NCBI GenBank assembly: GCA_964356915.1
Contig: CAYHJF010000002.1
Coordinates: 19,982 to 83,981, forward strand
From: an uncultured Candidatus Saccharibacteria bacterium
GTDB lineage: Bacteria; Patescibacteriota; Minisyncoccia; Ryanbacterales; GWA2-47-10b
DNA length: 64,000 nt
Reading direction: 5' to 3'
This document shows positions 4,081 through 45,934 of this stretch, piece after piece. Each line of letters starts with the position of its first letter. The stretch's first letter is position 1. A program made the position numbers and the translations under genes. The notes beneath the pieces are model-generated. The model ran no database searches. It saw nothing but the letters and a program-made list of their open reading frames with translations, and was not told the origin of the DNA.

Positions 4081-5472
4081 ATGGCTCGTATTCATATCTC
4101 GGAAACTCCAACTCAGATAGGTAAAAGTGTTGAATTAGCAGGGTGGGTAGACAATCGTCGCGATCATGGAAAATTGATCTTTTTAGATTTGCGCGATGAG
4201 TCGGGCATGGTTCAAATGGTTGTCCCCGGACAAAACACCGAGCTTTTTGCCGTGGCAGATAAACTTCGCTCCGAATGGGTCATTCTCATTGAGGGCTTAG
4301 TAAAGGAACGGCCAAAGGGAATGCAAAATGCCAATATTCCAACGGGTACAGTGGAGATTGAAGTTACAAAAGTTGAGATTTTGAGCTCTGCAGAAACCCC
4401 ACCGATAGATATCGCAGGAGATGGATATGAGATAGGGGAAGAGGTACGACTTGAGTATCGCTATTTAGATTTGCGCAGAGCTCGGCTTCAAAAAAATCTT
4501 CGCCTGCGCTCAAAGCTTACCCACGCACTTCGTGAGTACTTAACAGTAAAAGATTTTGTTGAAATCGAAACGCCCTATCTAACAAAATCGACTCCGGAAG
4601 GATCTCGTGACTTTCTAGTGCCTTCCCGCATGCAGCCCGGAAAATTTTATGCGCTTCCACAAAGTCCTCAACAGTACAAACAACTCCTCATGGCGAGTGG
4701 ATTTGAAAAGTATTTTCAATTTGCGCGTGCAATGCGAGACGAAGACTTACGCGCAGATCGTGCCTTTGAGCACACACAGCTCGATATGGAGATGGCATTT
4801 GTTGGGCGTGAAGATGTATTGAAGCTTATCGAGGAGATGATGATTGCAGTTGTAGAAAAACTTGGTTTTACTATTAAAGAAAAACCGTTCCCACGCTTTA
4901 GTTATAAAGAAGCGCTGGAAAAATTTGGTGCAGACAAATTTGATCTCCGTACGCCAGAAGAAAAAGCAGCAAACGTACAAGCATTTGCATGGGTTTTAGA
5001 TTTTCCATTTTTTGAGGCAACTGAGGGAGGATGGACGTTTAGTCACAATCCATTTTCAGCAGCAATGCCAGAGTCACACAAAGACTTGATGGCAAAAACC
5101 AATATTGAAAATATTGTTGCCGCTCAATATGACCTCGTGCTCAATGGATTTGAAGCGGGGGGAGGGAGTGTTCGAGAACATCGTCCGGAGGTGCTCAAAG
5201 CGGCACTTGAAATCATGGGTTTTGCTCCTGAAAAAATTGAATCAGAATACGGTCATATGATGAAAGCATTTTCTCATGGAGTTCCACCGCACGGAGGACT
5301 CGCGGTCGGCCTCGACCGTCTTGTGATGTGCCTTTTGGGTGAGACGGCCATTCGAGAGATCCAAGCATTTCCCATGACAGCGGGCGGCAAGACTGCCGTG
5401 ATGGATGCGCCGTCTGAAGTAACGGACGCGCAGCTTAAAGAAGTCGGTTTAGAATTACGAAAGAAAAAATAA
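4081..5472 (+). CDS. aspS: Aspartyl-tRNA synthetase, short archaeal-type without GAD insertion
   Basis: Class IIb motifs QSPQQYKQLLM, FARAMRDEDLRADRAFEHTQLDMEMAF and GGGSVREH. The 463-aa length fits the non-discriminating type. Confidence 0.8.
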   Translation: MARIHISETPTQIGKSVELAGWVDNRRDHGKLIFLDLRDESGMVQMVVPGQNTELFAVADKLRSEWVILIEGLVKERPKGMQNANIPTGTVEIEVTKVEILSSAETPPIDIAGDGYEIGEEVRLEYRYLDLRRARLQKNLRLRSKLTHALREYLTVKDFVEIETPYLTKSTPEGSRDFLVPSRMQPGKFYALPQSPQQYKQLLMASGFEKYFQFARAMRDEDLRADRAFEHTQLDMEMAFVGREDVLKLIEEMMIAVVEKLGFTIKEKPFPRFSYKEALEKFGADKFDLRTPEEKAANVQAFAWVLDFPFFEATEGGWTFSHNPFSAAMPESHKDLMAKTNIENIVAAQYDLVLNGFEAGGGSVREHRPEVLKAALEIMGFAPEKIESEYGHMMKAFSHGVPPHGGLAVGLDRLVMCLLGETAIREIQAFPMTAGGKTAVMDAPSEVTDAQLKEVGLELRKKK

Positions 5473-37561: not shown

Positions 37562-39454
37562 TTATTTCAATTGGTAGTAGAAGTACGTACTGTCAGGGAA
37601 TTTTATGTTAGGCACCCACAACGGACGGTCTTCCCATCCTTTGCTTGCTTCGCCCTTGAGTCGATACATTGTAATGACAAGGCGGTCAGGATGCTGCATG
37701 CCGAGAGCGCGGTCAGTCGGAGAAAGGAGCGTACCTGTTCCCCTGCTGATGCTACGGTCGGTGCGTACTACCAACAGACAATCGAATTTCGCATTGTTCT
37801 TGCGGAGAGTTTCTACGCAGTCAGGGAAAGAATGCTGGTTCCATAGATCGGTTTTCTCGACGCCGATCAAGCGCAATATTTTTTCCGCATCTTTCAGGGA
37901 TATGTCGCGTTCGCTGTCTTTCGATCCAAGTTCGGAATCGAGTTCTTTGAGGTTTGCGACAGTCGGCATCAATGGGAAATAGTTTACGCCTCCGGCGACG
38001 ACCATAAGGTCTTCCTTCAGCACAACGCTCATGCGTGTCGGTCTTGTTCCTGCAGGGCTGAGCAGGCTTACTCCCTGCGGTCCCTTGGTTCGGAGAGTTT
38101 CGAAGAGCGAGTTATTTGCGTCGTTCAATTCGCGGAAGAGCTTGATGAGTGGCTTCGGGCTGAATATCCTGCAGAGTCCCTGATCACGGTCATAGCCGAA
38201 TACGCGTGCATGCTGCCAGTACGTGTCTGCTTGTGGCGTCTTTGCGCTTCGGCAGTAGTAGACGACCTGCAGGCCCGGAAAAGTCACGCCTCGGCCGAGG
38301 GTGTTTCCGCCGATCACGATATTTAGTCCCTTGTCGTACACTGCGCCTTCCGGAGTCTTCGAGTTAAGCACCACGATGTTGACGCTCGGCATGCCGGAGC
38401 GAAGGAATTTCATCACTTCTTCGAAGCTCTTTATGTCTTCCTTTGTCTTTGAGAAATCCTCCCATGCATCGCGCAGGTCGAATTCAAGCGTCTGCGAGTT
38501 TGCAATAAGGTCGGTCTTCACGCCCTCGAGAAACTTCTCGACTTTAGTGCGGACTGTGGCGTGTTCGCTTATCTTTGCGCCTGGGTGTATGAGCATGCTG
38601 CATACTGGCTTCTCTTTCGTGAGAAAAAGGTCGGATGATGCAATAAGGAAATGGAGTACTGCTTTGCGGAGACCGATCGGCACATGCTCTGCTTTTAGAA
38701 GGTCGTCGCGCTCGTTGTCCGCAGTCTCGATAAGACATTTCGACTCTTCGCCATAGAAAAAATCTCCACCAAGATAGCCTTCGCCTGGAGGAAGATAAAA
38801 AGAAAATTCAGGCTTCCAGTTTGACTGCGACACTTGAAGCACAAGGGATTGAGGAGTTGCGGTGACGTGAAGATACATGCATGACGGAGCCTGCTCACTG
38901 ATCTTTTCCAAGAGCATGTTTATGGTGCTCTGGTCGTTTTGGTTTACTTTTGTGTTGAGACTCGATGCATCAGCTTCGTCGTCGAGCAGGAAGAGAGGTT
39001 CGTCTTTATAGATAGGATTGCTTGCGATGTTGTTCGCCCATGTCTTGAGGACACTCGAGTTCTTCTTGAGCACCAATATCGTAGGCATCGACAGGCCACG
39101 CGTAAGGAACGCTTCTTCGTCCATTTCGCCGAGCACATTAAACCCTGCCATAAATCCACCGAGGAATAATTTTGTGCGCTCAAGCGTCTGTTTGTGGAGG
39201 AGCACATTATCCGTGGTCACCATTATGAAAAACTTGAAGCCTTTATCGGCGGCTGTGGCTGCGATCGCAAGCATCTGTCCGGTCTTTCCGCTCTGTACAT
39301 GGCCGTAGAGCAGCCCGGAGATGTGGCTGTTGTAATCGAAGGCGTCGATATGCTTTTCAGCAAATTCATCCGCACTTTTTTTGAGCGCGTCGACAAGCCT
39401 CGGACCCTTGGCCTCGCCTACTCGTTTTAGATAATTGTCGAGATATTCGCTCAT
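37562..39454 (-). CDS. DEAD-Z1 ATPase/helicase-like motor subunit of restriction system (H.CglI / R2.NgoAVII-like)
   Basis: Walker A GHVQSGKTG and DEAD box LFLLDDEADASS. 630 aa, close to the ~630-aa H.CglI. Immediately downstream of the PLD nuclease and the C5-MTase. Confidence 0.7.
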   Translation of the reverse strand: MSEYLDNYLKRVGEAKGPRLVDALKKSADEFAEKHIDAFDYNSHISGLLYGHVQSGKTGQMLAIAATAADKGFKFFIMVTTDNVLLHKQTLERTKLFLGGFMAGFNVLGEMDEEAFLTRGLSMPTILVLKKNSSVLKTWANNIASNPIYKDEPLFLLDDEADASSLNTKVNQNDQSTINMLLEKISEQAPSCMYLHVTATPQSLVLQVSQSNWKPEFSFYLPPGEGYLGGDFFYGEESKCLIETADNERDDLLKAEHVPIGLRKAVLHFLIASSDLFLTKEKPVCSMLIHPGAKISEHATVRTKVEKFLEGVKTDLIANSQTLEFDLRDAWEDFSKTKEDIKSFEEVMKFLRSGMPSVNIVVLNSKTPEGAVYDKGLNIVIGGNTLGRGVTFPGLQVVYYCRSAKTPQADTYWQHARVFGYDRDQGLCRIFSPKPLIKLFRELNDANNSLFETLRTKGPQGVSLLSPAGTRPTRMSVVLKEDLMVVAGGVNYFPLMPTVANLKELDSELGSKDSERDISLKDAEKILRLIGVEKTDLWNQHSFPDCVETLRKNNAKFDCLLVVRTDRSISRGTGTLLSPTDRALGMQHPDRLVITMYRLKGEASKGWEDRPLWVPNIKFPDSTYFYYQLK

Positions 39455-39458
39455 ATGT

Positions 39459-40511
39459 TTATACAGAGAAGTCGAGAAGCCACACCTTCGGATCGCTCGT
39501 TTCTTTCAGCGATATGGTTTTGCGACCGTACTTCTGCAGCACTTCGTCCGTTACTGGCTGTCCGACCTTTAGGCAGTTCGCTCGTTCAAGCCTTCCCTTT
39601 ATCCATCGGCCGAGAGTCTTTAAGTCTCCGCCCGAGCGAAAGTTCTTGCCATAGTCTCCCTGAATTTTGCATTCAAATTTCCATCCGTCATCGGTTATAA
39701 CGCTGATCTGTGTATCGCGTGGCGGATAGCCGTCTGCTTCAGTTATTTCTCTCGGTACAATAAGTTCTACTTCGTACCAGTGGCGAGGGCGTATCGCTCC
39801 TGTTGCCGTCGCGAGGCGACCTTTGCCGAAGTATGCATTGAGATTGCTCTTCGCTTCTGTCTTTAGAGGAATGTCGAACACTCGCTCTACTCCTGTTGCT
39901 TCGATAGCCTCATATACATCTTGGTCTGCTTTTTCGACATCGACGCGGTCTTGAAGCAAGTCCGTCATTTCTACGAAATGCTCGGGCTTCGGCATGTCGA
40001 GAATGTCGCGCGACGCCTTTTTGACTAAGTCTTCGTGCAGCGAGTCCAGTTCTGTGAGGACGCTTCCTTCAGTAAAGAGCGCGTCTACCTCGTACTGCCT
40101 GCTGTCGAGAATATTGCCGAGGTTCGATGATCCGAGCATTGCGGAAACTGGTGCCGGTACGCCGTTCTTGCCGAAGACATAAGTCTTGCCGTGGTATTTG
40201 AATGCAGTGCATACGCGCACGCTACCGAGACCGTTTTCACGCAAAAAAGTCGCAAGCTCGATGGCTGCGTCGTATTGAGCGCGAGTGAACCCTTCCCTCC
40301 CGTGCATGCCTATCACTAGGCTGCATGTTTTGGTCTGCTTCTCTTCGAAGTAAAAAAGTAGTATCGACTTGAGTTCAAGGAGAGAATCCTCCGTGATATA
40401 CCCGGTCGCTATCTTTATGATGTCGGAGCCAACGACTCCATTTTCAAATGCTTCGCTGAAGGAAGAGCTATCGTACTCGCAGGGTTTGGTGTTCGAATAA
40501 AGAAGTTGCAT
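39459..40511 (-). CDS. PLD-family restriction endonuclease subunit with B3-like C-terminal domain (R.CglI / R1.NgoAVII-like)
   Basis: HKD-type motif YHGKTYVFGKNG...LGSSNLG, with HxK and GSxN elements. 350 aa. Encoded between the C5-MTase and the DEAD-Z1 gene. Confidence 0.65.
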   Translation of the reverse strand: MQLLYSNTKPCEYDSSSFSEAFENGVVGSDIIKIATGYITEDSLLELKSILLFYFEEKQTKTCSLVIGMHGREGFTRAQYDAAIELATFLRENGLGSVRVCTAFKYHGKTYVFGKNGVPAPVSAMLGSSNLGNILDSRQYEVDALFTEGSVLTELDSLHEDLVKKASRDILDMPKPEHFVEMTDLLQDRVDVEKADQDVYEAIEATGVERVFDIPLKTEAKSNLNAYFGKGRLATATGAIRPRHWYEVELIVPREITEADGYPPRDTQISVITDDGWKFECKIQGDYGKNFRSGGDLKTLGRWIKGRLERANCLKVGQPVTDEVLQKYGRKTISLKETSDPKVWLLDFSV

Positions 40512-40529
40512 GCGAGTTTATCGTACAAA

Positions 40530-41585
40530 TCATAGTTCGTCTAAAAATCTCTTAATCGCCTCTGCGATCGGCTTGATGCCTGCAGGGGGAACCGAGTTCC
40601 CTATCTGCCTGCGTACCTCGGCGATTGAGCCGACAAACTGGAAGTCGTCGGGGTAGCCAAAGAGCCGTGCGCGTTCTCGATTTGTGAGAGGGCGATTTTC
40701 TTCATAATGGTAGCCCCAAGTGCCACCACCACCGCCTGCTATAATTGTAGTTGAAGGCTTGTCAGGATGCAATCGTCGATAGACGTGTGAAATCATACCC
40801 TTGACATAGTGCGGTGAGTTCTTTGGAATGTCCGTAAAGTTTCCGCCTGGAGGAATTATTCTCAATTTTGCGACCGTGCTCGGCGCGATGTTCTGGTGCT
40901 CGTTGTTGAATGGCACTTTCTTCACACCTTTGAGTGCTTCTTTTGCTGTGACGTATGTCTTTGGATTATAGGTAGGTTCTGGCAGTTTGAATTCTTTGTT
41001 GAGATCGTTGCGGACTCCGACGATAAGCACACGCTGACGAAGTTGAGGTGCTCCGTAGTCTGCAAAGTTTATTGGGTATACATCCACTTTGTATCCGGCC
41101 TTTCCGAAGTCGTCCACGATTTGCGTCACTGCCTTACCTTTGTTTGCGCTTAGCAAGCCTCGCACGTTTTCTGCGACGAACATCTTCGGCTTCTTCGCCA
41201 AGACGACGCGGACGAAGTGTCGATATAAATTTCCGCGCTCGGTCTTGAGACCCATGCGCTTCCATATCATTGAAAAATCTTGGCACGGGAATCCGCCCGT
41301 GATGATATCGACTTCTGGGATTGTTTTGTCATCGATCTCGACGATGCTTCCCTCCGCGACAATGCCTTTGAAGTTTTTTCTAAAAGTTTCGCATGCCCAA
41401 TGATTTACATCGTTCGCCCACACCACATCGAAGCCTGCATGTTCGAACCCGAGATCCATTCCGCCGGACCCTGAAAATAGTGACGCTGCGCGATATGGCC
41501 GCCCCCCCACCTTAGATTTGATTGCGATGGAAATCTGTGGCTTAACAGAAGGATTATTTGGCTTTTGAAGTGCTGTTGTACTCAT
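40530..41585 (-). CDS. DNA (cytosine-5)-methyltransferase
   Basis: Motif I FSGSGGMDLGF, motif IV GGFPCQDFS, motif VI ENVRGL, motif X region GNSVPP. Confidence 0.9.
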   Translation of the reverse strand: MSTTALQKPNNPSVKPQISIAIKSKVGGRPYRAASLFSGSGGMDLGFEHAGFDVVWANDVNHWACETFRKNFKGIVAEGSIVEIDDKTIPEVDIITGGFPCQDFSMIWKRMGLKTERGNLYRHFVRVVLAKKPKMFVAENVRGLLSANKGKAVTQIVDDFGKAGYKVDVYPINFADYGAPQLRQRVLIVGVRNDLNKEFKLPEPTYNPKTYVTAKEALKGVKKVPFNNEHQNIAPSTVAKLRIIPPGGNFTDIPKNSPHYVKGMISHVYRRLHPDKPSTTIIAGGGGGTWGYHYEENRPLTNRERARLFGYPDDFQFVGSIAEVRRQIGNSVPPAGIKPIAEAIKRFLDEL

Positions 41586-41645
41586 GTTCTAGATTATACC
41601 CTAAGTGCATGAAAAATGCCGCAACTTTTTGCATGAAAAAAACAC
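41586..41645 (-). promoter_or_regulatory. Candidate leaderless promoter plus direct-repeat operator of the RM operon
   Basis: Minus-strand reading gives gggTATAATctagaacATG, a consensus -10 ending 7 nt before the MTase start codon. Two direct tgcatgaaaaa repeats, 22 bp apart, overlap the -35 region. Confidence 0.35.
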
Positions 41646-41763
41646 ACAAATTCCCAAACGCGGCTTAACTGGGGCCGCAAAATGGGAATAAGTTATCCAC
41701 AGTTGTACAATTTTACTACCGCTTTTTTGCTCAAAAGGTTTGTATTAAAATCGTCGCAAGCGA

Positions 41764-42168
41764 TTATTCTGTGGAAGAAATTTGTGTACCCTTTTGCTTA
41801 GCACGACTTATTAAGTATCCTCCAACGAATGCGACAACACCGAGTACGTCGCCGATTGCGAATGGTCCGAAGGCCGGTGCTACCGAAGGATCAAAAAACG
41901 ATCCACTGAGAAATGTGAATCGTGCGATGACGCTGGCAATTACGACAAGTCCCAAACAGACAAGTCCTGCCTGAAATGGTCTTAAACTCATGGTATTAAT
42001 AATATCACTTTCGGGCGGCCGCATAAATCCCGCCGCCAGGAGCTCGTGCCTTTCGGCCCGAATGCACACCTTTCGATATGCAACCATCCAAGGAACCCTG
42101 ACGACGGGGTTTATACCTTGGATGGATTTACTGCCATGCTCATCAGCAAGCTGAGTGAGTTTAGGCAA
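41764..42168 (-). CDS. Membrane protein, hypothetical
   Basis: C-terminal half has two TM helices (LVCLGLVVIASVIARF, FAIGDVLGVVAFVGGYLI). Start uncertain. Confidence 0.35.
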   Translation of the reverse strand: MPKLTQLADEHGSKSIQGINPVVRVPWMVAYRKVCIRAERHELLAAGFMRPPESDIINTMSLRPFQAGLVCLGLVVIASVIARFTFLSGSFFDPSVAPAFGPFAIGDVLGVVAFVGGYLISRAKQKGTQISSTE

Positions 42169-42215
42169 GATTGTAAGGATATTTTACTATATTTAAAATA
42201 ATTCGGATAGTTTAG

Positions 42216-42265
<50 letters not shown>

Positions 42266-42328
42266 CGACCGCCTGCGGCGGAATTCAAGGGATCAAAAGA
42301 CCCAAGAATTCAAGACCTCAAGGATCGA

Positions 42329-43216
42329 TTACTGCGGGAGGAAGGCCGACGCGGAACCGCAGCTGCCGCTGGCAGAGTCGAACCAGTAGGCGCCGAACCC
42401 CACCCGGTCGCCGCCGAAGTCGAAGAGCGGCGCGAGCGAGAAGTCGCCATCGGCCTCCGGAGCGTACTCGTCACCGGCGCAGTCGACGTAGAGATCGTCG
42501 TAGTTCATCAGCCGCTCGGGATGCGTGAGCAACATGATGCCGACGGCGAACGCGCCGAGACCGAACTCGTTGACCTGCATGACCTCGCGTGCCCGGCGAA
42601 CCGAGCGACCGCGATGCCGCAGACCGAACTGAGCCGCCACGACGAGGATGTCGTGATCCTTCTGCTCGTCGCCGAGCGTCTGGAACACCTTCTCCGTCTT
42701 GGCCGTCTGCTTCAAGTAGTCCGGACCGAGGTTGCCCTCGCGCCAGTTCTTGAACTTGCCCTTGCGCGTCTCGCTGATCTTCGCGAGCACCTTCTCCACG
42801 GCTTCGCCGTAGGTCGGGGCGATCGTCTGCCACTTCGGGATGGCGAACCATCCTTCGGCGTTGGCAGGGACCGGCCGTTCCGCGAGCTTCTCGTCGGCGA
42901 AACCGACGCCCGGGAACAGTTGCCGCAGGATGTTGGTCTGCTCCGTGATGCCCTTCGGCTTGTAGCCGGAGAGATACCCGTAGCTGGACTCCATCTCCTC
43001 GTCCTTGAACTTGTCGGAGACCGACAGATCCTTCAGCGAGGTGATGGCGGCCACGCGGATGGCCTCGGCGAAATCGTCGCCGTGTTCGATGACGCGTTGT
43101 GCGCCGGGGTTGTCGAGGCCGAGCTCAGCGAGAACCTTCTCGATGGCGTCGGAGCCGAACCGGTTGATCTGCTTGACCTGACCGGACGTTGCTGCTGTCT
43201 GAGTAATCGCGTTCAT
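42329..43216 (-). CDS. DGR target (variable) protein, VR in the C-terminal 44 codons
   Basis: 295-aa ORF at ~65% GC, against ~45-48% for the surroundings. The last 132 nt are an A-mutagenized copy of the template repeat (TR). Confidence 0.85.
   Translation of the reverse strand: MNAITQTAATSGQVKQINRFGSDAIEKVLAELGLDNPGAQRVIEHGDDFAEAIRVAAITSLKDLSVSDKFKDEEMESSYGYLSGYKPKGITEQTNILRQLFPGVGFADEKLAERPVPANAEGWFAIPKWQTIAPTYGEAVEKVLAKISETRKGKFKNWREGNLGPDYLKQTAKTEKVFQTLGDEQKDHDILVVAAQFGLRHRGRSVRRAREVMQVNEFGLGAFAVGIMLLTHPERLMNYDDLYVDCAGDEYAPEADGDFSLAPLFDFGGDRVGFGAYWFDSASGSCGSASAFLPQ
42332..42462 (-). repeat. DGR variable repeat (VR)
   Basis: Reverse complement matches TR 43673-43804 at 114 of 132 nt. All 18 mismatches sit where TR has adenine. 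The 26-nt 3' block cggttccgcgtcggccttcctcccg is identical in both copies (IMH-like). Confidence 0.85.
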
Positions 43217-43399
43217 TGCGTTATCTCCTTTTGGATTTCCTGAAACGCTCAGGTGACGGCCTTCCTCTTAGTGAGGCGAGCGCGATAGGCACAAGCAATT
43301 ATGCCGATTGCGCTCACCTCAGTTATTCAAAGAACACTCTTCTATAGTATAACAAAGTCATACGGGCTTGTCAAGTAGTGGGTTTTGTGCCCTATTCCC

Positions 43400-43408
43400 T
43401 GCTATAAT
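43400..43408 (+). promoter_or_regulatory. Extended -10 promoter (TGcTATAAT) oriented toward TR
   Basis: ctgcTATAATtattcg on the plus strand, ~270 nt upstream of TR. No good -35. Confidence 0.3.
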
Positions 43409-43672
43409 TATTCGTGAGTATAGGCTAATGCATGGCCGTCCAAGGATTGCCGTCGCCGAACTCTATCGTTTCAACGATAGCAACCAGAGTCGCGGAGATT
43501 ACGGTTTTCGCGAGCGTGTTGTGTTGAGGGGATACTGCTTGTCTCTGCCTAAGATGGGTTTCGCTCGCTATGCGGATACCGTCGAATTAAATTCAGGAGT
43601 GGGAGCGTATAGTCCTGTTTCCAACAGGAAGTAAGGCTCGAAGTCCGGTGACATGGGTGGGTGGAGACAATT

Positions 43673-43804
43673 CTCCGGAGGCCGATGGCGACTTCTCGAA
43701 CGCGCCGATCTTCAACTTCGACGACGACCGGGTGAAGTTCAACGCCAACTGGTTCGACAATGCCAACGACAACTACGGTTCCGCGTCGGCCTTCCTCCCG
43801 AAGT
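43673..43804 (+). repeat. DGR template repeat (TR)
   Basis: Contains 26 adenines. 17 internal adenines plus 1 boundary adenine are substituted in VR, and no non-A position differs. Seven AAC/AAT codons are in frame with VR. Confidence 0.85.
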
Positions 43805-43816
43805 CTCCCTAGACGC

Positions 43817-43850
43817 AGAAAAGGCATCCTTCTTTCGGATGCCTTTTCTC
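43817..43850. terminator. Bidirectional terminator between TR and avd
   Basis: Stem aaaaggcatcc / ggatgcctttt, loop ttctttc. Sits immediately after the avd stop on the minus strand and after TR on the plus strand. Confidence 0.5.
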
Positions 43851-44207
43851 TTACCCGGTCTTCGTTGAGCGAATCCAACCTCCGAGCATGCGTCCGATTT
43901 CGTCGATGACACCTTCGAGCGCAACATACTTCTTCGCATCGATTGCCTTCACGTCTTTCATCAGACGAACGAACACACGAAGCATGTTGAGCTTTAGGCT
44001 GCATCTCTCAAGCGTGGGAACTTTTACGGATTTCTGTTCGCTGCTTGCCTGCAGAATCGCCTCGAGCACGTCGAGTATCAGCTGCTCACACCTTTCGAAG
44101 ATTGTGAACCTGTCCTGCTTGGGAACGAGTTTCCGATATTCGTGGAAGAGTTTGTAGAGATCGTATGCCTTTTTGAAGATCGGGATATCGAAGTCATTCA
44201 TAACCAT
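43851..44207 (-). CDS. avd: Avd-like accessory variability determinant (four-helix-bundle protein)
   Basis: ~119 aa from the internal Met. Basic, helical. KKAYDLYKLFHEYRKLVPKQDRFTIFERCEQLILDVLEAILQA is typical of the Avd / 23S-IVS four-helix-bundle family. Confidence 0.7.
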   Translation of the reverse strand: MVMNDFDIPIFKKAYDLYKLFHEYRKLVPKQDRFTIFERCEQLILDVLEAILQASSEQKSVKVPTLERCSLKLNMLRVFVRLMKDVKAIDAKKYVALEGVIDEIGRMLGGWIRSTKTG

Positions 44208-45255
44208 GAAGATATATAAGGATTTGTTTAATCGGATAGTCTCACTTGGAAACCTAGTCACAGCCTGGGAGGAATTTCGCAGCGACAAAGGCAAGAAGGC
44301 TGATGTGCTGGAATTCGAGTATTCGCTAGAGCCGAATCTCTTTGCGCTCCGGCGTGAGCTGGGCTCCAAACGCTACTCTCACGGTTCGTATGAGGGTTTT
44401 TATATCCGCGATCCGAAGGTCAGGCATATTCACAAGGCAGCGGTTCGCGACCGTGTCCTGCACCATGCAGTGTTTAGAATTCTGAACCCGATCTTCGAGG
44501 AAACATTCATCGCTAATTCGTTTTCTTGCCGAGTCAATAAAGGTACACACAAGGGAGTGCTTGCCGCCGAGAATATGATTCGAGCGGAGAGCAGGAACTA
44601 CACTATTCCCTGCTTCGCCCTCAAGTGCGATGTGCGTAAGTTCTTCGATTCGATTGATCACGAAATCTTGCTAGCGATTCTCAAGCGACGGATCGCCGAC
44701 CCCGATACGATGTGGTTGTTGCAAGAGATTGTCAGGAGCTTTGAAGTCGGAGGCACGAGCCTTTTTAATCGGCACGGTCTGCCTATCGGCAATCTCACTT
44801 CCCAACTCTTCGCCAACGTCTACATGAACGAATTCGACCAGTTCGTTAAGCACGAGATGAAGGTTAAGAATTACGCACGTTATACCGACGACTTTATAGT
44901 TGTGTCGGCCGACAAGAAGTATTTAGAGGGGTTGCTCGATCCGTTTCAGGAATTCCTCGGGGAACGTCTGAAGCTCTCGCTTCATCCGAAGAAAATCTCT
45001 ATTGGCAATGTGGCGAGGGGAGTCGACTTTCTAGGGTATGTCGCTCTTCCCCACTACAAGGTGCTTCGGACCAAGACAAAACACCGAATATTCCGCAAGC
45101 TCAGGGAACGAGTCATGCAGTACCGGCGTGGTGATATAAGCGAGCACTCTCTCTCACAATCCCTCCATTCCTACTTGGGTGCGCTTTCTCATGCTGACGC
45201 CCACCAACTGACTGAAGATCTAAAGAACCGCTACTGGTTTTGGCTTCACGAGTAA
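44173..45255 (+). CDS. DGR reverse transcriptase
   Basis: GFYIRDPKVRHIHKAAVRDRVLHHAVF...SFSCRVNKGTHKGV. DGR-specific motif 4 GLPIGNLTSQLFANVYMNEF (IGxxxSQ). Catalytic YARYTDDFIVV (YxDD). The start may be the second Met at 44206. Confidence 0.95.
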   Translation: MKIGISKSFITMKIYKDLFNRIVSLGNLVTAWEEFRSDKGKKADVLEFEYSLEPNLFALRRELGSKRYSHGSYEGFYIRDPKVRHIHKAAVRDRVLHHAVFRILNPIFEETFIANSFSCRVNKGTHKGVLAAENMIRAESRNYTIPCFALKCDVRKFFDSIDHEILLAILKRRIADPDTMWLLQEIVRSFEVGGTSLFNRHGLPIGNLTSQLFANVYMNEFDQFVKHEMKVKNYARYTDDFIVVSADKKYLEGLLDPFQEFLGERLKLSLHPKKISIGNVARGVDFLGYVALPHYKVLRTKTKHRIFRKLRERVMQYRRGDISEHSLSQSLHSYLGALSHADAHQLTEDLKNRYWFWLHE

Positions 45256-45406
45256 ACGCAAAAATCCTCGCAGTACCATCTTTCGGCGCATACGCGCGGA
45301 AGAATCCTGTGCGAGGATGGCTTGGATGGTTTTGCGACCGTGCCCGTAGCCGGGGTTAGGTCTTATTCAGTTGTCTAAGTATCTTAGCAAATAAAACAAT
45401 ATTTGA

Positions 45407-45934
45407 TTACTTGTGATCTTTGTCATGGCCGTCGTTACTTAGTCTTTCTATTTCTTCCTGAAGCATTTTTACAATGCACTTGCTCTTATACGTCAAAAAC
45501 TCGATGTGTTTCTCATCAAATGTCGACAGTAGCCGGTAATATTTGTCTGACAGCGGTTTGTAATAAAGCAACACGAGTGCGATTTTTTTAGGCACTGATT
45601 TCACAATGACTTTTCGTTTGTCTTTAGTGTCGCGCACATAAGTCACGCAGCCTTTTTTCTCAAGACGAGTGATCAGCCCCGTGATTGCGCCGGTAGTAAG
45701 ACCGGTAATCTTTGCCAGTTCGCCCGGGGTCGTTTGACCTTTTTCTGCGAGATAGCCAAGGCAGGACATTTCGGTTTGGGTCATCCCCGCTCGTTTCGCT
45801 ACCAGCTCCTTAAATACTCCATCCATTCGGTACTGCTGTCCTCGGACGCGTTTGTATTCTTCATAGAGCCTATCCAGTCGCTTGTTTTTCCTGACTTTCC
45901 CGAGTTTGAATTTTTTCTTGGATTCGGCCTTCAT
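45407..45934 (-). CDS. MarR-family transcriptional regulator
   Basis: Winged-helix core LGYLAEKGQTTPGELAKITGLTTGAITGLITRLEKKGCVTYVRDTKDKRKV. Confidence 0.7.
   Translation of the reverse strand: MKAESKKKFKLGKVRKNKRLDRLYEEYKRVRGQQYRMDGVFKELVAKRAGMTQTEMSCLGYLAEKGQTTPGELAKITGLTTGAITGLITRLEKKGCVTYVRDTKDKRKVIVKSVPKKIALVLLYYKPLSDKYYRLLSTFDEKHIEFLTYKSKCIVKMLQEEIERLSNDGHDKDHK

Follow-up and report, generated by a model that had tools for sequence, protein, structure and literature searches.

Known details of how a diversity-generating retroelement (DGR) selects its template, primes on it and stops come from one phage element, in which the essential RNA lies downstream of the template repeat (TR). The RNA of this element, BPP-1 of Bordetella (gene order mtd-avd-TR-brt), needs no more than 20 nt on the upstream side of the TR and 140 nt on the downstream side, and its spacer downstream supplies the Avd-binding stem-loop, the primer strand, a duplex with an upstream strand that stops the reverse transcriptase (RT) and elements which bind the RT (10.1101/2023.10.23.563531). 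The bacteria of the candidate phyla radiation (CPR, Patescibacteria) are among the richest carriers of DGRs, and in the set of Wu et al. 2018 90% of the CPR elements have the order TR-(avd)-RT, catalogued as 'architecture B3' (NAR 46:11, PMC5758913). In this work we have analysed a DGR cassette in a window of 64 kb (the whole stretch of DNA under study) from contig CAYHJF010000002.1 of an uncultured Candidatus Saccharibacteria bacterium. It is very probable that the cassette is an active DGR of Patescibacteria, with the TR-(avd)-RT order typical of the lineage, the target gene upstream on the opposite strand and the TR carried in a structured RNA of its own.

With BPP-1 the cassette shares adenine mutagenesis, the pair of Avd and RT, a variable repeat (VR) at the 3' end of the target gene and GC-rich, identical 3' ends of the two repeats. 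Both also have an 11-13 bp stem-loop directly after the TR and duplexes which clamp, here by prediction, both TR ends. The differences lie in avd, whose strand and whose position relative to the TR are both reversed, in the inverted target, and in the RNA: in the window about 260 nt of conserved structure stand upstream of the TR and only about 45 nt remain downstream of it before the avd stop codon. The BPP-1 arrangement of the RNA is not available to the CPR clade. The other CPR-type DGRs of architecture B3 (PMC5758913; DGR clade 2 of Roux et al. 2021, PMC8144416) agree with the cassette in how TR, avd and RT are ordered and oriented; they have a patescibacterial host and, likewise, a single target of about 300 aa without a recognisable domain, and in gene layout there is no difference from them. 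Cassettes whose parts are spread over two strands, as in the window, were already described by Schillinger et al. in 2012, together with opposite-strand VRs (PMC3521204), which were noted again in 2024 (PMC11661182); it follows from such cassettes that TR RNA and target need share neither orientation nor transcript. In group 4 of Schillinger et al. the RT is alone on one strand, the other holding TR, VR and target together, whereas in the window the TR goes with the RT, and avd and target are opposite (PMC3521204).

The cassette and its layout among relatives

The cassette comprises the following features:
42329-43216, minus strand: target gene, 295 aa, with the VR at its C-terminus; a hypothetical protein family specific to Patescibacteria
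42331-42462, minus strand: VR, 132 nt, the C-terminal end of the target; 18 differences from the TR, all opposite TR adenines
43673-43804, plus strand: TR, with 28 adenines; read in the VR frame it has 8 AAC, 1 AAT and 2 AAG codons
43851-44207, minus strand: avd, 118 aa; Pfam bAvd PF22296, E = 1e-18; NCBIfam NF033474, 85.6 bits
44206-45255, plus strand: DGR reverse transcriptase, 349 aa; RVT_1, E = 5.7e-24; motifs IGNLTSQ and YTDD

The initial annotation of this DNA had put the target gene and its VR on the minus strand and the TR on the plus strand, so that the repeats are inverted, and this is what we found. TR and VR form an inverted pair of 132 nt which aligns without gaps and has 18 mismatches; in 18/18 the TR base is an adenine (11 A>G, 4 A>C and 3 A>T), so that 18 of the 28 TR adenines are altered. 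With A making up 21% of the TR, plain arithmetic gives a chance of about 0.21^18, or ~1e-12, that 18 random mismatches would all fall on A. The pair is the sole long inverted repeat within the 64 kb. A search of the window for a second copy of TR or VR, a co-directional TR included, gave none. The 3' stretch of both repeats (43776-43804), GC-rich and of the IMH/IMH* (initiation of mutagenic homing) type, is identical except for A43801, which is C in the VR. The VR spans codons 253-295, the last 43 codons, of the 295-codon open reading frame (ORF) of the target. Five target homologues with identities of 87% or more were compared: of the 19 residues that come from A-containing TR codons 18 are variable, in comparison with 1 of the 24 from A-free VR codons and 32 of the 250 upstream of the VR. 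The pattern points to diversification at adenine-coded sites in the target family; as evidence it concerns the family and not the strain itself.

The position of avd was also given correctly in the initial annotation: the gene is on the minus strand, divergent from the RT, and overlaps its start. The two start codons stand head to head and overlap by 2 nt within CATG (44205-44208). Homology to Avd is confirmed by PF22296 and by NF033474, 'diversity-generating retroelement protein Avd', for which the 85.6 bits exceed the curated cut-off of 80. The hallmark of DGR-type RTs is an [I/L/V]GxxxSQ motif together with a catalytic YxDD, and the RT of the window carries IGNLTSQ and YTDD. NCBIfam is without a DGR-specific RT model; the RT is unlike a retron RT, with 55.7 bits against the retron St85 model, whose cut-off is 235.

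More than 563 genome loci encode relatives of the window RT, and the best 80 of them, with 48-78% RT identity, were fetched for comparison. Nearly all come from records named as CPR/Patescibacteria lineages (Paceibacterota, Saccharibacteria and similar metagenome-assembled genomes). Avd homologues were located by tblastn with the Avd of the window, and repeats with a TR/VR caller of our own design, by which a pair was callable in 58 related loci. In every locus that holds upstream DNA (77/77), avd lies directly upstream of the RT on the opposite strand. In 57/58 loci with a callable pair the TR shares the strand of the RT and lies just past the avd stop, the distance from TR end to avd stop being up to ~70 nt with a median of ~45 (57 loci); in the sole exception, L060, the TR and the leader RNA described below are on the strand opposite the RT. 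The initial annotation had called the architecture unusual. For this lineage it is not, since B3 is catalogued for CPR and the same order is found in the relatives examined; the cassette is a new member of a catalogued kind, and its layout is the norm for Patescibacteria. As the standard cassette of CPR bacteria, the flagged gene layout adds nothing new.

Nor does the inverted target, which had been singled out as an oddity, set the locus apart. Opposite-strand targets have been on record since 2012 (PMC3521204), and among the 58 related loci the VR is co-directional with the TR in 47 and on the opposite strand in 11, a group which holds all the closest relatives (L001, L002, L003, L005, L006, L007 and L064). 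The same target family is seen in both orientations. Loci with an inverted target have 14-26 TR/VR mismatches each, 86-100% of them at TR adenines, and so the orientation of the target does not impair retrohoming, a tolerance which would be expected for a complementary DNA (cDNA) acting in trans. Among the relatives the number and position of targets are fluid, and TR-leader, avd and RT are fixed. One TR serves two VRs in two tandem target genes in L014, L021, L035 and L038, and in L054 the VR is downstream of the RT on the opposite strand.

A structured leader and pairing around the template repeat

The TR is preceded by a conserved leader and followed by a hairpin:
43400-43408, plus strand: candidate extended -10 box TGCTATAAT for the TR RNA; it stands back to back with the promoter of the target gene
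43411-43680, plus strand: conserved structured leader, 266 model positions and about 10 helices; conserved sequence from ~43414
43817-43849, both strands: 13-bp hairpin AGAAAAGGCAUCC-loop-GGAUGCCUUUUCU, its 5' arm carrying an A-run and its 3' arm a T-run; candidate bidirectional terminator

Nucleotide identity of the leader is 63-77% even where the RTs share only ~60% of their residues. For 24 sequences RNAalifold gave 55 pairs, 38 of them with compensatory changes; 96.8% of the leader cells are paired, compared with 39-49% when the partners are slid by 1-3 columns, and 0/500 shuffles reached the observed value. A covariance model of the leader was searched across 81 sources and found exactly one leader per locus in 72 of them, always abutting the 5' end of the TR on the TR strand, L060 included; the sources without a match include loci cut too near the RT upstream to hold the TR region. 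In these 72 sequences compensatory change is seen in 52/55 pairs. The copy in the window scores 253 bits and is the only one there. The model marks TRs in CPR genomes independently of any VR.

Could the leader be a known RNA, or is it conserved as part of a gene? The Rfam 15 search, at the gathering threshold over the whole window and at E up to 5 on 41600-45400, gave no family match for the leader/TR RNA, and this holds for all of RT-1 to RT-19, the RT-associated motifs of Weinberg et al. 2017, among them RT-10, the motif of the BPP-1 spacer. The region 41600-45400 returned only LOOT and a weak STnc250. In the CPR-DGR literature that we covered, neither a structured leader nor a promoter of its own nor pairing that brackets the TR was found described; outside that coverage fall Paul et al. 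2017 (PMC5436926) as well as a 2026 preprint about the coevolutionary mining of noncoding RNAs, and the RNA might be mentioned in them. The scan of Handa et al. covered only 40 nt upstream of the TR (10.1101/2023.10.23.563531). The leader appears to be an RNA family undescribed so far. An 88-aa ORF with a TTG start (43368-43634) was considered as a gene and rejected: its tblastn matches switch frames within L005, L007, L002, L003 and L017, and the conservation of the leader is therefore not that of a protein.

The extended -10 promoter directed toward the TR, which the initial annotation had placed at 43400-43408, is present. A -10-like hexamer, defined as at least 4/6 matches to TATAAT at 3-13 nt before the conserved RNA, was found in 63/68 related loci, in 37 of them at -7 or -8. 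When 25 loci were aligned from the promoter to the avd stop, conservation started just 3' of this hexamer, and the box itself is a conserved block. At the other end, the hairpin begins 12 nt after the TR, with 1 nt between its end and the avd stop codon. In 44/60 loci a hairpin with a stem of 7 bp or more (median 12) stands ~12 nt after the TR; A's open its 5' arm and T's close its 3' arm, and its stem sequences differ from locus to locus in a co-varying manner. It occupies the position of the Avd-binding stem-loop in the Bordetella phage RNA, and its region has a weak Rfam resemblance, on the minus strand, to STnc250, a terminator of a small RNA (sRNA). The hairpin has the shape of a two-way intrinsic terminator between what would be convergent units. 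That the TR is made as its own transcript, as the initial annotation had proposed, is supported by comparison. Such an RNA would not be the short one envisaged there, as the structured leader of ~260 nt lies between promoter and TR.

Two helices of the RNA are predicted to bracket the TR:
43528-43535, plus strand: leader strand GGGGAUAC, purine-rich, pairing with the 3' edge of the TR; followed by the 3-nt linker UGC and then helix 6
43539-43550, plus strand: 5' strand of helix 6, pairing with 43659-43670; 12 bp
43659-43670, plus strand: 3' strand of helix 6, ending 2 nt before the TR/VR homology
43803-43810, plus strand: post-TR strand GUCUCCCU, 8 nt starting from the last two bases of the TR, pairing with leader 43528-43535

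Of the 12 bp of helix 6, 9 show compensatory change in the set of 24 sequences and 11 in the set of 72. The strands of the long-range duplex change together between clades: GGAUAGAG occurs with CUCUAUCC, GGAUGGAG with CUCCAUCC, AGAUGGAAAU with AUUUCCAUCU and UUUGAGAGA with UCUCUCAAA. Cognate leader/post-TR duplexes have a mean of -11.4 kcal/mol compared with -8.4 for permuted ones (z = -10, 0/10,000 permutations), and a control segment of the leader gave z = -2 in the same test. A scan for other helices between leader and downstream sequence gave only the GGAG/CUCC region and short invariant matches. Because helix 6 ends at 43670 and the duplex starts at 43803, the 132-nt core of TR/VR homology would form the loop between the two helices. 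The last A-to-N difference, A43801, is 2 nt inside the duplex boundary at 43803. As features of the sequence the leader and the TR bracket are strongly supported; their role we infer.

Proposed mechanism and its alternatives

We hypothesize that the TR is transcribed alone, as an RNA of ~440 nt convergent with avd which, with the -10 box at 43400-43408, would start at ~43414 and run as far as the hairpin (43817-43849). The template would be the 132-nt loop between helix 6 and the duplex 43528-43535/43803-43810. The latter would provide the pairing of primer and template, its end holding a nearly invariant ACU (43534-43536) as the candidate priming site, and cDNA synthesis would proceed from ~A43802, beside the leader ACU, to ~43671 with adenines mis-copied, helix 6 acting as the stop for the RT. 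The 3' hairpin may be a terminator, an Avd grapple or both. The cDNA would then replace the VR in trans, for which the orientation of the target would be immaterial. Within this scheme the leader would be the functional counterpart of the 140-nt downstream spacer of BPP-1, providing the RT-Avd scaffold, the primer:template duplex and the stop at the 5' edge of the TR. We propose it for this role because the downstream side is taken by antisense avd without a conserved RNA element: at the 3' end of avd synonymous-site identity is the lowest in the gene, 0.27-0.35 compared with 0.39 overall, and so no conserved RNA element overlaps there. A spacer-like RNA antisense to avd was considered and rejected, there being no synonymous constraint where a downstream spacer would sit.

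In the msr-msd RNA of retrons, the structured part stands 5' of the template, and a strand on the template's 3' side folds back onto the 5' region, which places the priming nucleotide next to the 3' end of the template. The TR RNA would be like it in topology only; the window has a non-retron RT, Avd and a VR target, and no product of the multicopy single-stranded DNA (msDNA) type is implied. Is the guide RNA of the CPR clade 'permuted' in comparison with that of Bordetella? It would then be a so far undescribed 5' RNA family of ~266 nt, with its own promoter and a two-way terminator, which clamps both template ends, supplies the priming site and has a retron-like topology, the functions of the spacer having been shifted upstream by the presence of antisense avd on the downstream side. 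On this question we find ourselves evenly divided. The leader and the TR-bracketing helices provide in any case a concrete and testable model: an RNA of ~440 nt with defined pairs, a predicted cDNA start at ~43802 and a predicted stop at ~43671.

The expression of avd and RT needs a comment. From start to start they are -2 to +16 nt apart in almost every one of 60 related loci (the junction corresponds to window 44180-44235), which leaves no intergenic room for a promoter or a ribosome-binding site, and a promoter scan at the locus called none for either gene. Since there is no space between the two genes, our model requires that each be expressed from signals embedded in the opening codons of the other, or that the RT depend on read-through of the hairpin. 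Synonymous-site identity is raised in the first 8 codons (RT 0.62 and avd 0.53, compared with ~0.39 gene-wide), which suggests embedded promoters or leaderless mRNAs for both genes.

Several points weigh against the model. The promoter, start and termination of the TR RNA are all read from sequence, and priming from the leader is an analogy. A simple scan of the locus did not call the plus-strand TR promoter, as it is without a -35 box, and a simple terminator scan did not call the hairpin at 43817-43849, as its T-run is partly within the stem; of the bidirectional terminator that the initial annotation had placed at 43817-43850, the hairpin itself is there and recurs among the relatives, and the call as a terminator was not reproduced. 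The hairpin need not terminate, since its positional counterpart in the Bordetella phage, a stem-loop of 11 bp, binds Avd and is followed by further RNA (10.1101/2023.10.23.563531). In close relatives the long-range duplex reaches only 8 bp, one mismatch included. In a search for the C-type lectin (or immunoglobulin) fold expected to carry a VR, the target protein gave an AlphaFold2 model (42 homologues, 70-100% identity) of low confidence, with a mean predicted local distance difference test (pLDDT) score of 60 and ~35 over the VR, and a Foldseek search of this model against the PDB returned nothing below E = 1. Lastly, the absence of a recognisable RT promoter fits read-through.

It may be that plus-strand transcription from 43400 continues through the hairpin, antisense over avd, and into the RT; the hairpin would then only bind Avd and the spacer would lie in the stretch antisense to avd. 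Besides the missing RT promoter and the tight avd-RT spacing, this explanation can appeal to the Bordetella phage, where ~110 nt more of spacer follow the Avd-binding stem-loop, and to the stem-loops that Handa et al. found after the TR in 207/278 avd-containing DGRs, CPR members included (10.1101/2023.10.23.563531). However, the stems here, of 11-14 bp, are perfect and stand between an A-run and a T-run in the manner of a two-way intrinsic terminator, the stretch in which the spacer would have to lie includes the least synonymously constrained part of avd, so that no conserved RNA overlaps there, and the partners of both TR-flanking duplexes are in the 5' leader. We therefore regard full read-through as unlikely, while partial read-through supplying the RT mRNA would be compatible with transcription of the TR as an RNA of its own. 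A different role for the leader, separate from the DGR RNA, seems highly improbable. It might be a regulatory element, such as a riboswitch-like 5' untranslated region or an sRNA, or code for the 88-aa ORF at 43368-43634, which does overlap it and has tblastn similarity in relatives. Yet single loci have those matches split between frames, the start codon of the ORF is TTG, the covariation of base pairs is very strong, and the leader is always fused to the TR on the TR strand, also in L060, with one of its strands co-varying with sequence just 3' of the TR.

Perhaps, then, a recent rearrangement, or an error of assembly, inverted the target and left a decaying, inactive cassette? The window is from a metagenome-assembled genome and 47/58 callable relatives have the target on the TR strand. 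But the same inverted layout and spacing recur in 10 independently assembled genomes with 59-78% RT identity, and in these the mismatches between the repeats are concentrated at TR adenines as described above. All ORFs are intact, the strong divergent promoter is kept in the inverted relatives and the adenine-coded residues vary among near-identical homologues. We give this explanation next to no credence.

The target gene and its surroundings

The target protein is an exact match to 'hypothetical protein AAB372_02415, Patescibacteria group bacterium', from a metagenome-assembled genome, and has at least 3397 homologues; it has no match among Pfam, NCBIfam or PDB profiles. Around the gene lie the following features:
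43346-43374, minus strand: target promoter-like site TTGACA-17-TATACT with an upstream TG, 11/12 matches
42269-42281: GC hairpin of 5 bp, downstream of the VR
42226-42257, both strands: terminator-like hairpin 3' of the target gene, with a 12-13 bp stem, 8 G-C pairs and T-runs on both strands

The TTGACA of the promoter (tgtcaa on the plus strand) recurs in the same position among relatives whose target is inverted. Just 3' of the VR no strong GC-rich inverted repeat was found at the locus, only the 5-bp GC hairpin ~50 nt downstream and the terminator at 42226-42257; such a repeat after the VR is found in only 34% of DGRs and is not a required feature (Wu et al., PMC5758913). The 9-mer CTTGAATTC (minus-strand reading, with an EcoRI site inside) occurs twice within 40 nt just past the VR, in window 42283-42320.

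The composition of the target gene is also unusual. Its GC content is 64%, with a GC content at third codon positions (GC3) of 0.87 when the VR is excluded, compared with 50% and 0.61 for the RT and 47% GC for the rest of the window. The GC3 of the target exceeds that of the RT in 22/22 loci of this target family, by 0.28 on average (0.71 compared with 0.27 in L051). The excess is neither adenine-specific nor dependent on orientation, and the target is compositionally foreign in every such locus.

A LOOT RNA (Rfam RF03000, function unknown) lies at 42045-42167 on the minus strand, ~160 nt past the target stop, with 75 bits, and a weak LOOT-like match (45257-45362, minus strand, 18.9 bits, E = 2.2) begins 2 nt after the RT stop, so that two LOOT matches in direct orientation flank the whole cassette. 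The closest relative, L064, has the same pair, both on the minus strand (1826-1950 with 78.5 bits; 5059-5157 with 25 bits and E = 0.9), and 9 copies were counted in 8/16 related DGR loci (140 kb). LOOT could be a marker of an insertion site or an island boundary. A listed ORF of 134 aa (41764-42168, minus strand) passes through the LOOT RNA; the real gene there is probably only a small membrane protein from an ATG near 41991, with LOOT in its 5' region.

Beyond LOOT, a restriction-modification cluster (37562-41585, minus strand) adjoins the cassette, and a regulator gene is found on its other side:
37562-39454, minus strand: Z1-domain ATPase-like protein
39459-40511, minus strand: NgoFVII-family endonuclease
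40530-41585, minus strand: C-5 cytosine methyltransferase
45407-45934: MarR-family regulator, on the other side of the cassette

Together with the DGR, the restriction-modification cluster and the MarR regulator look like an accessory gene island.

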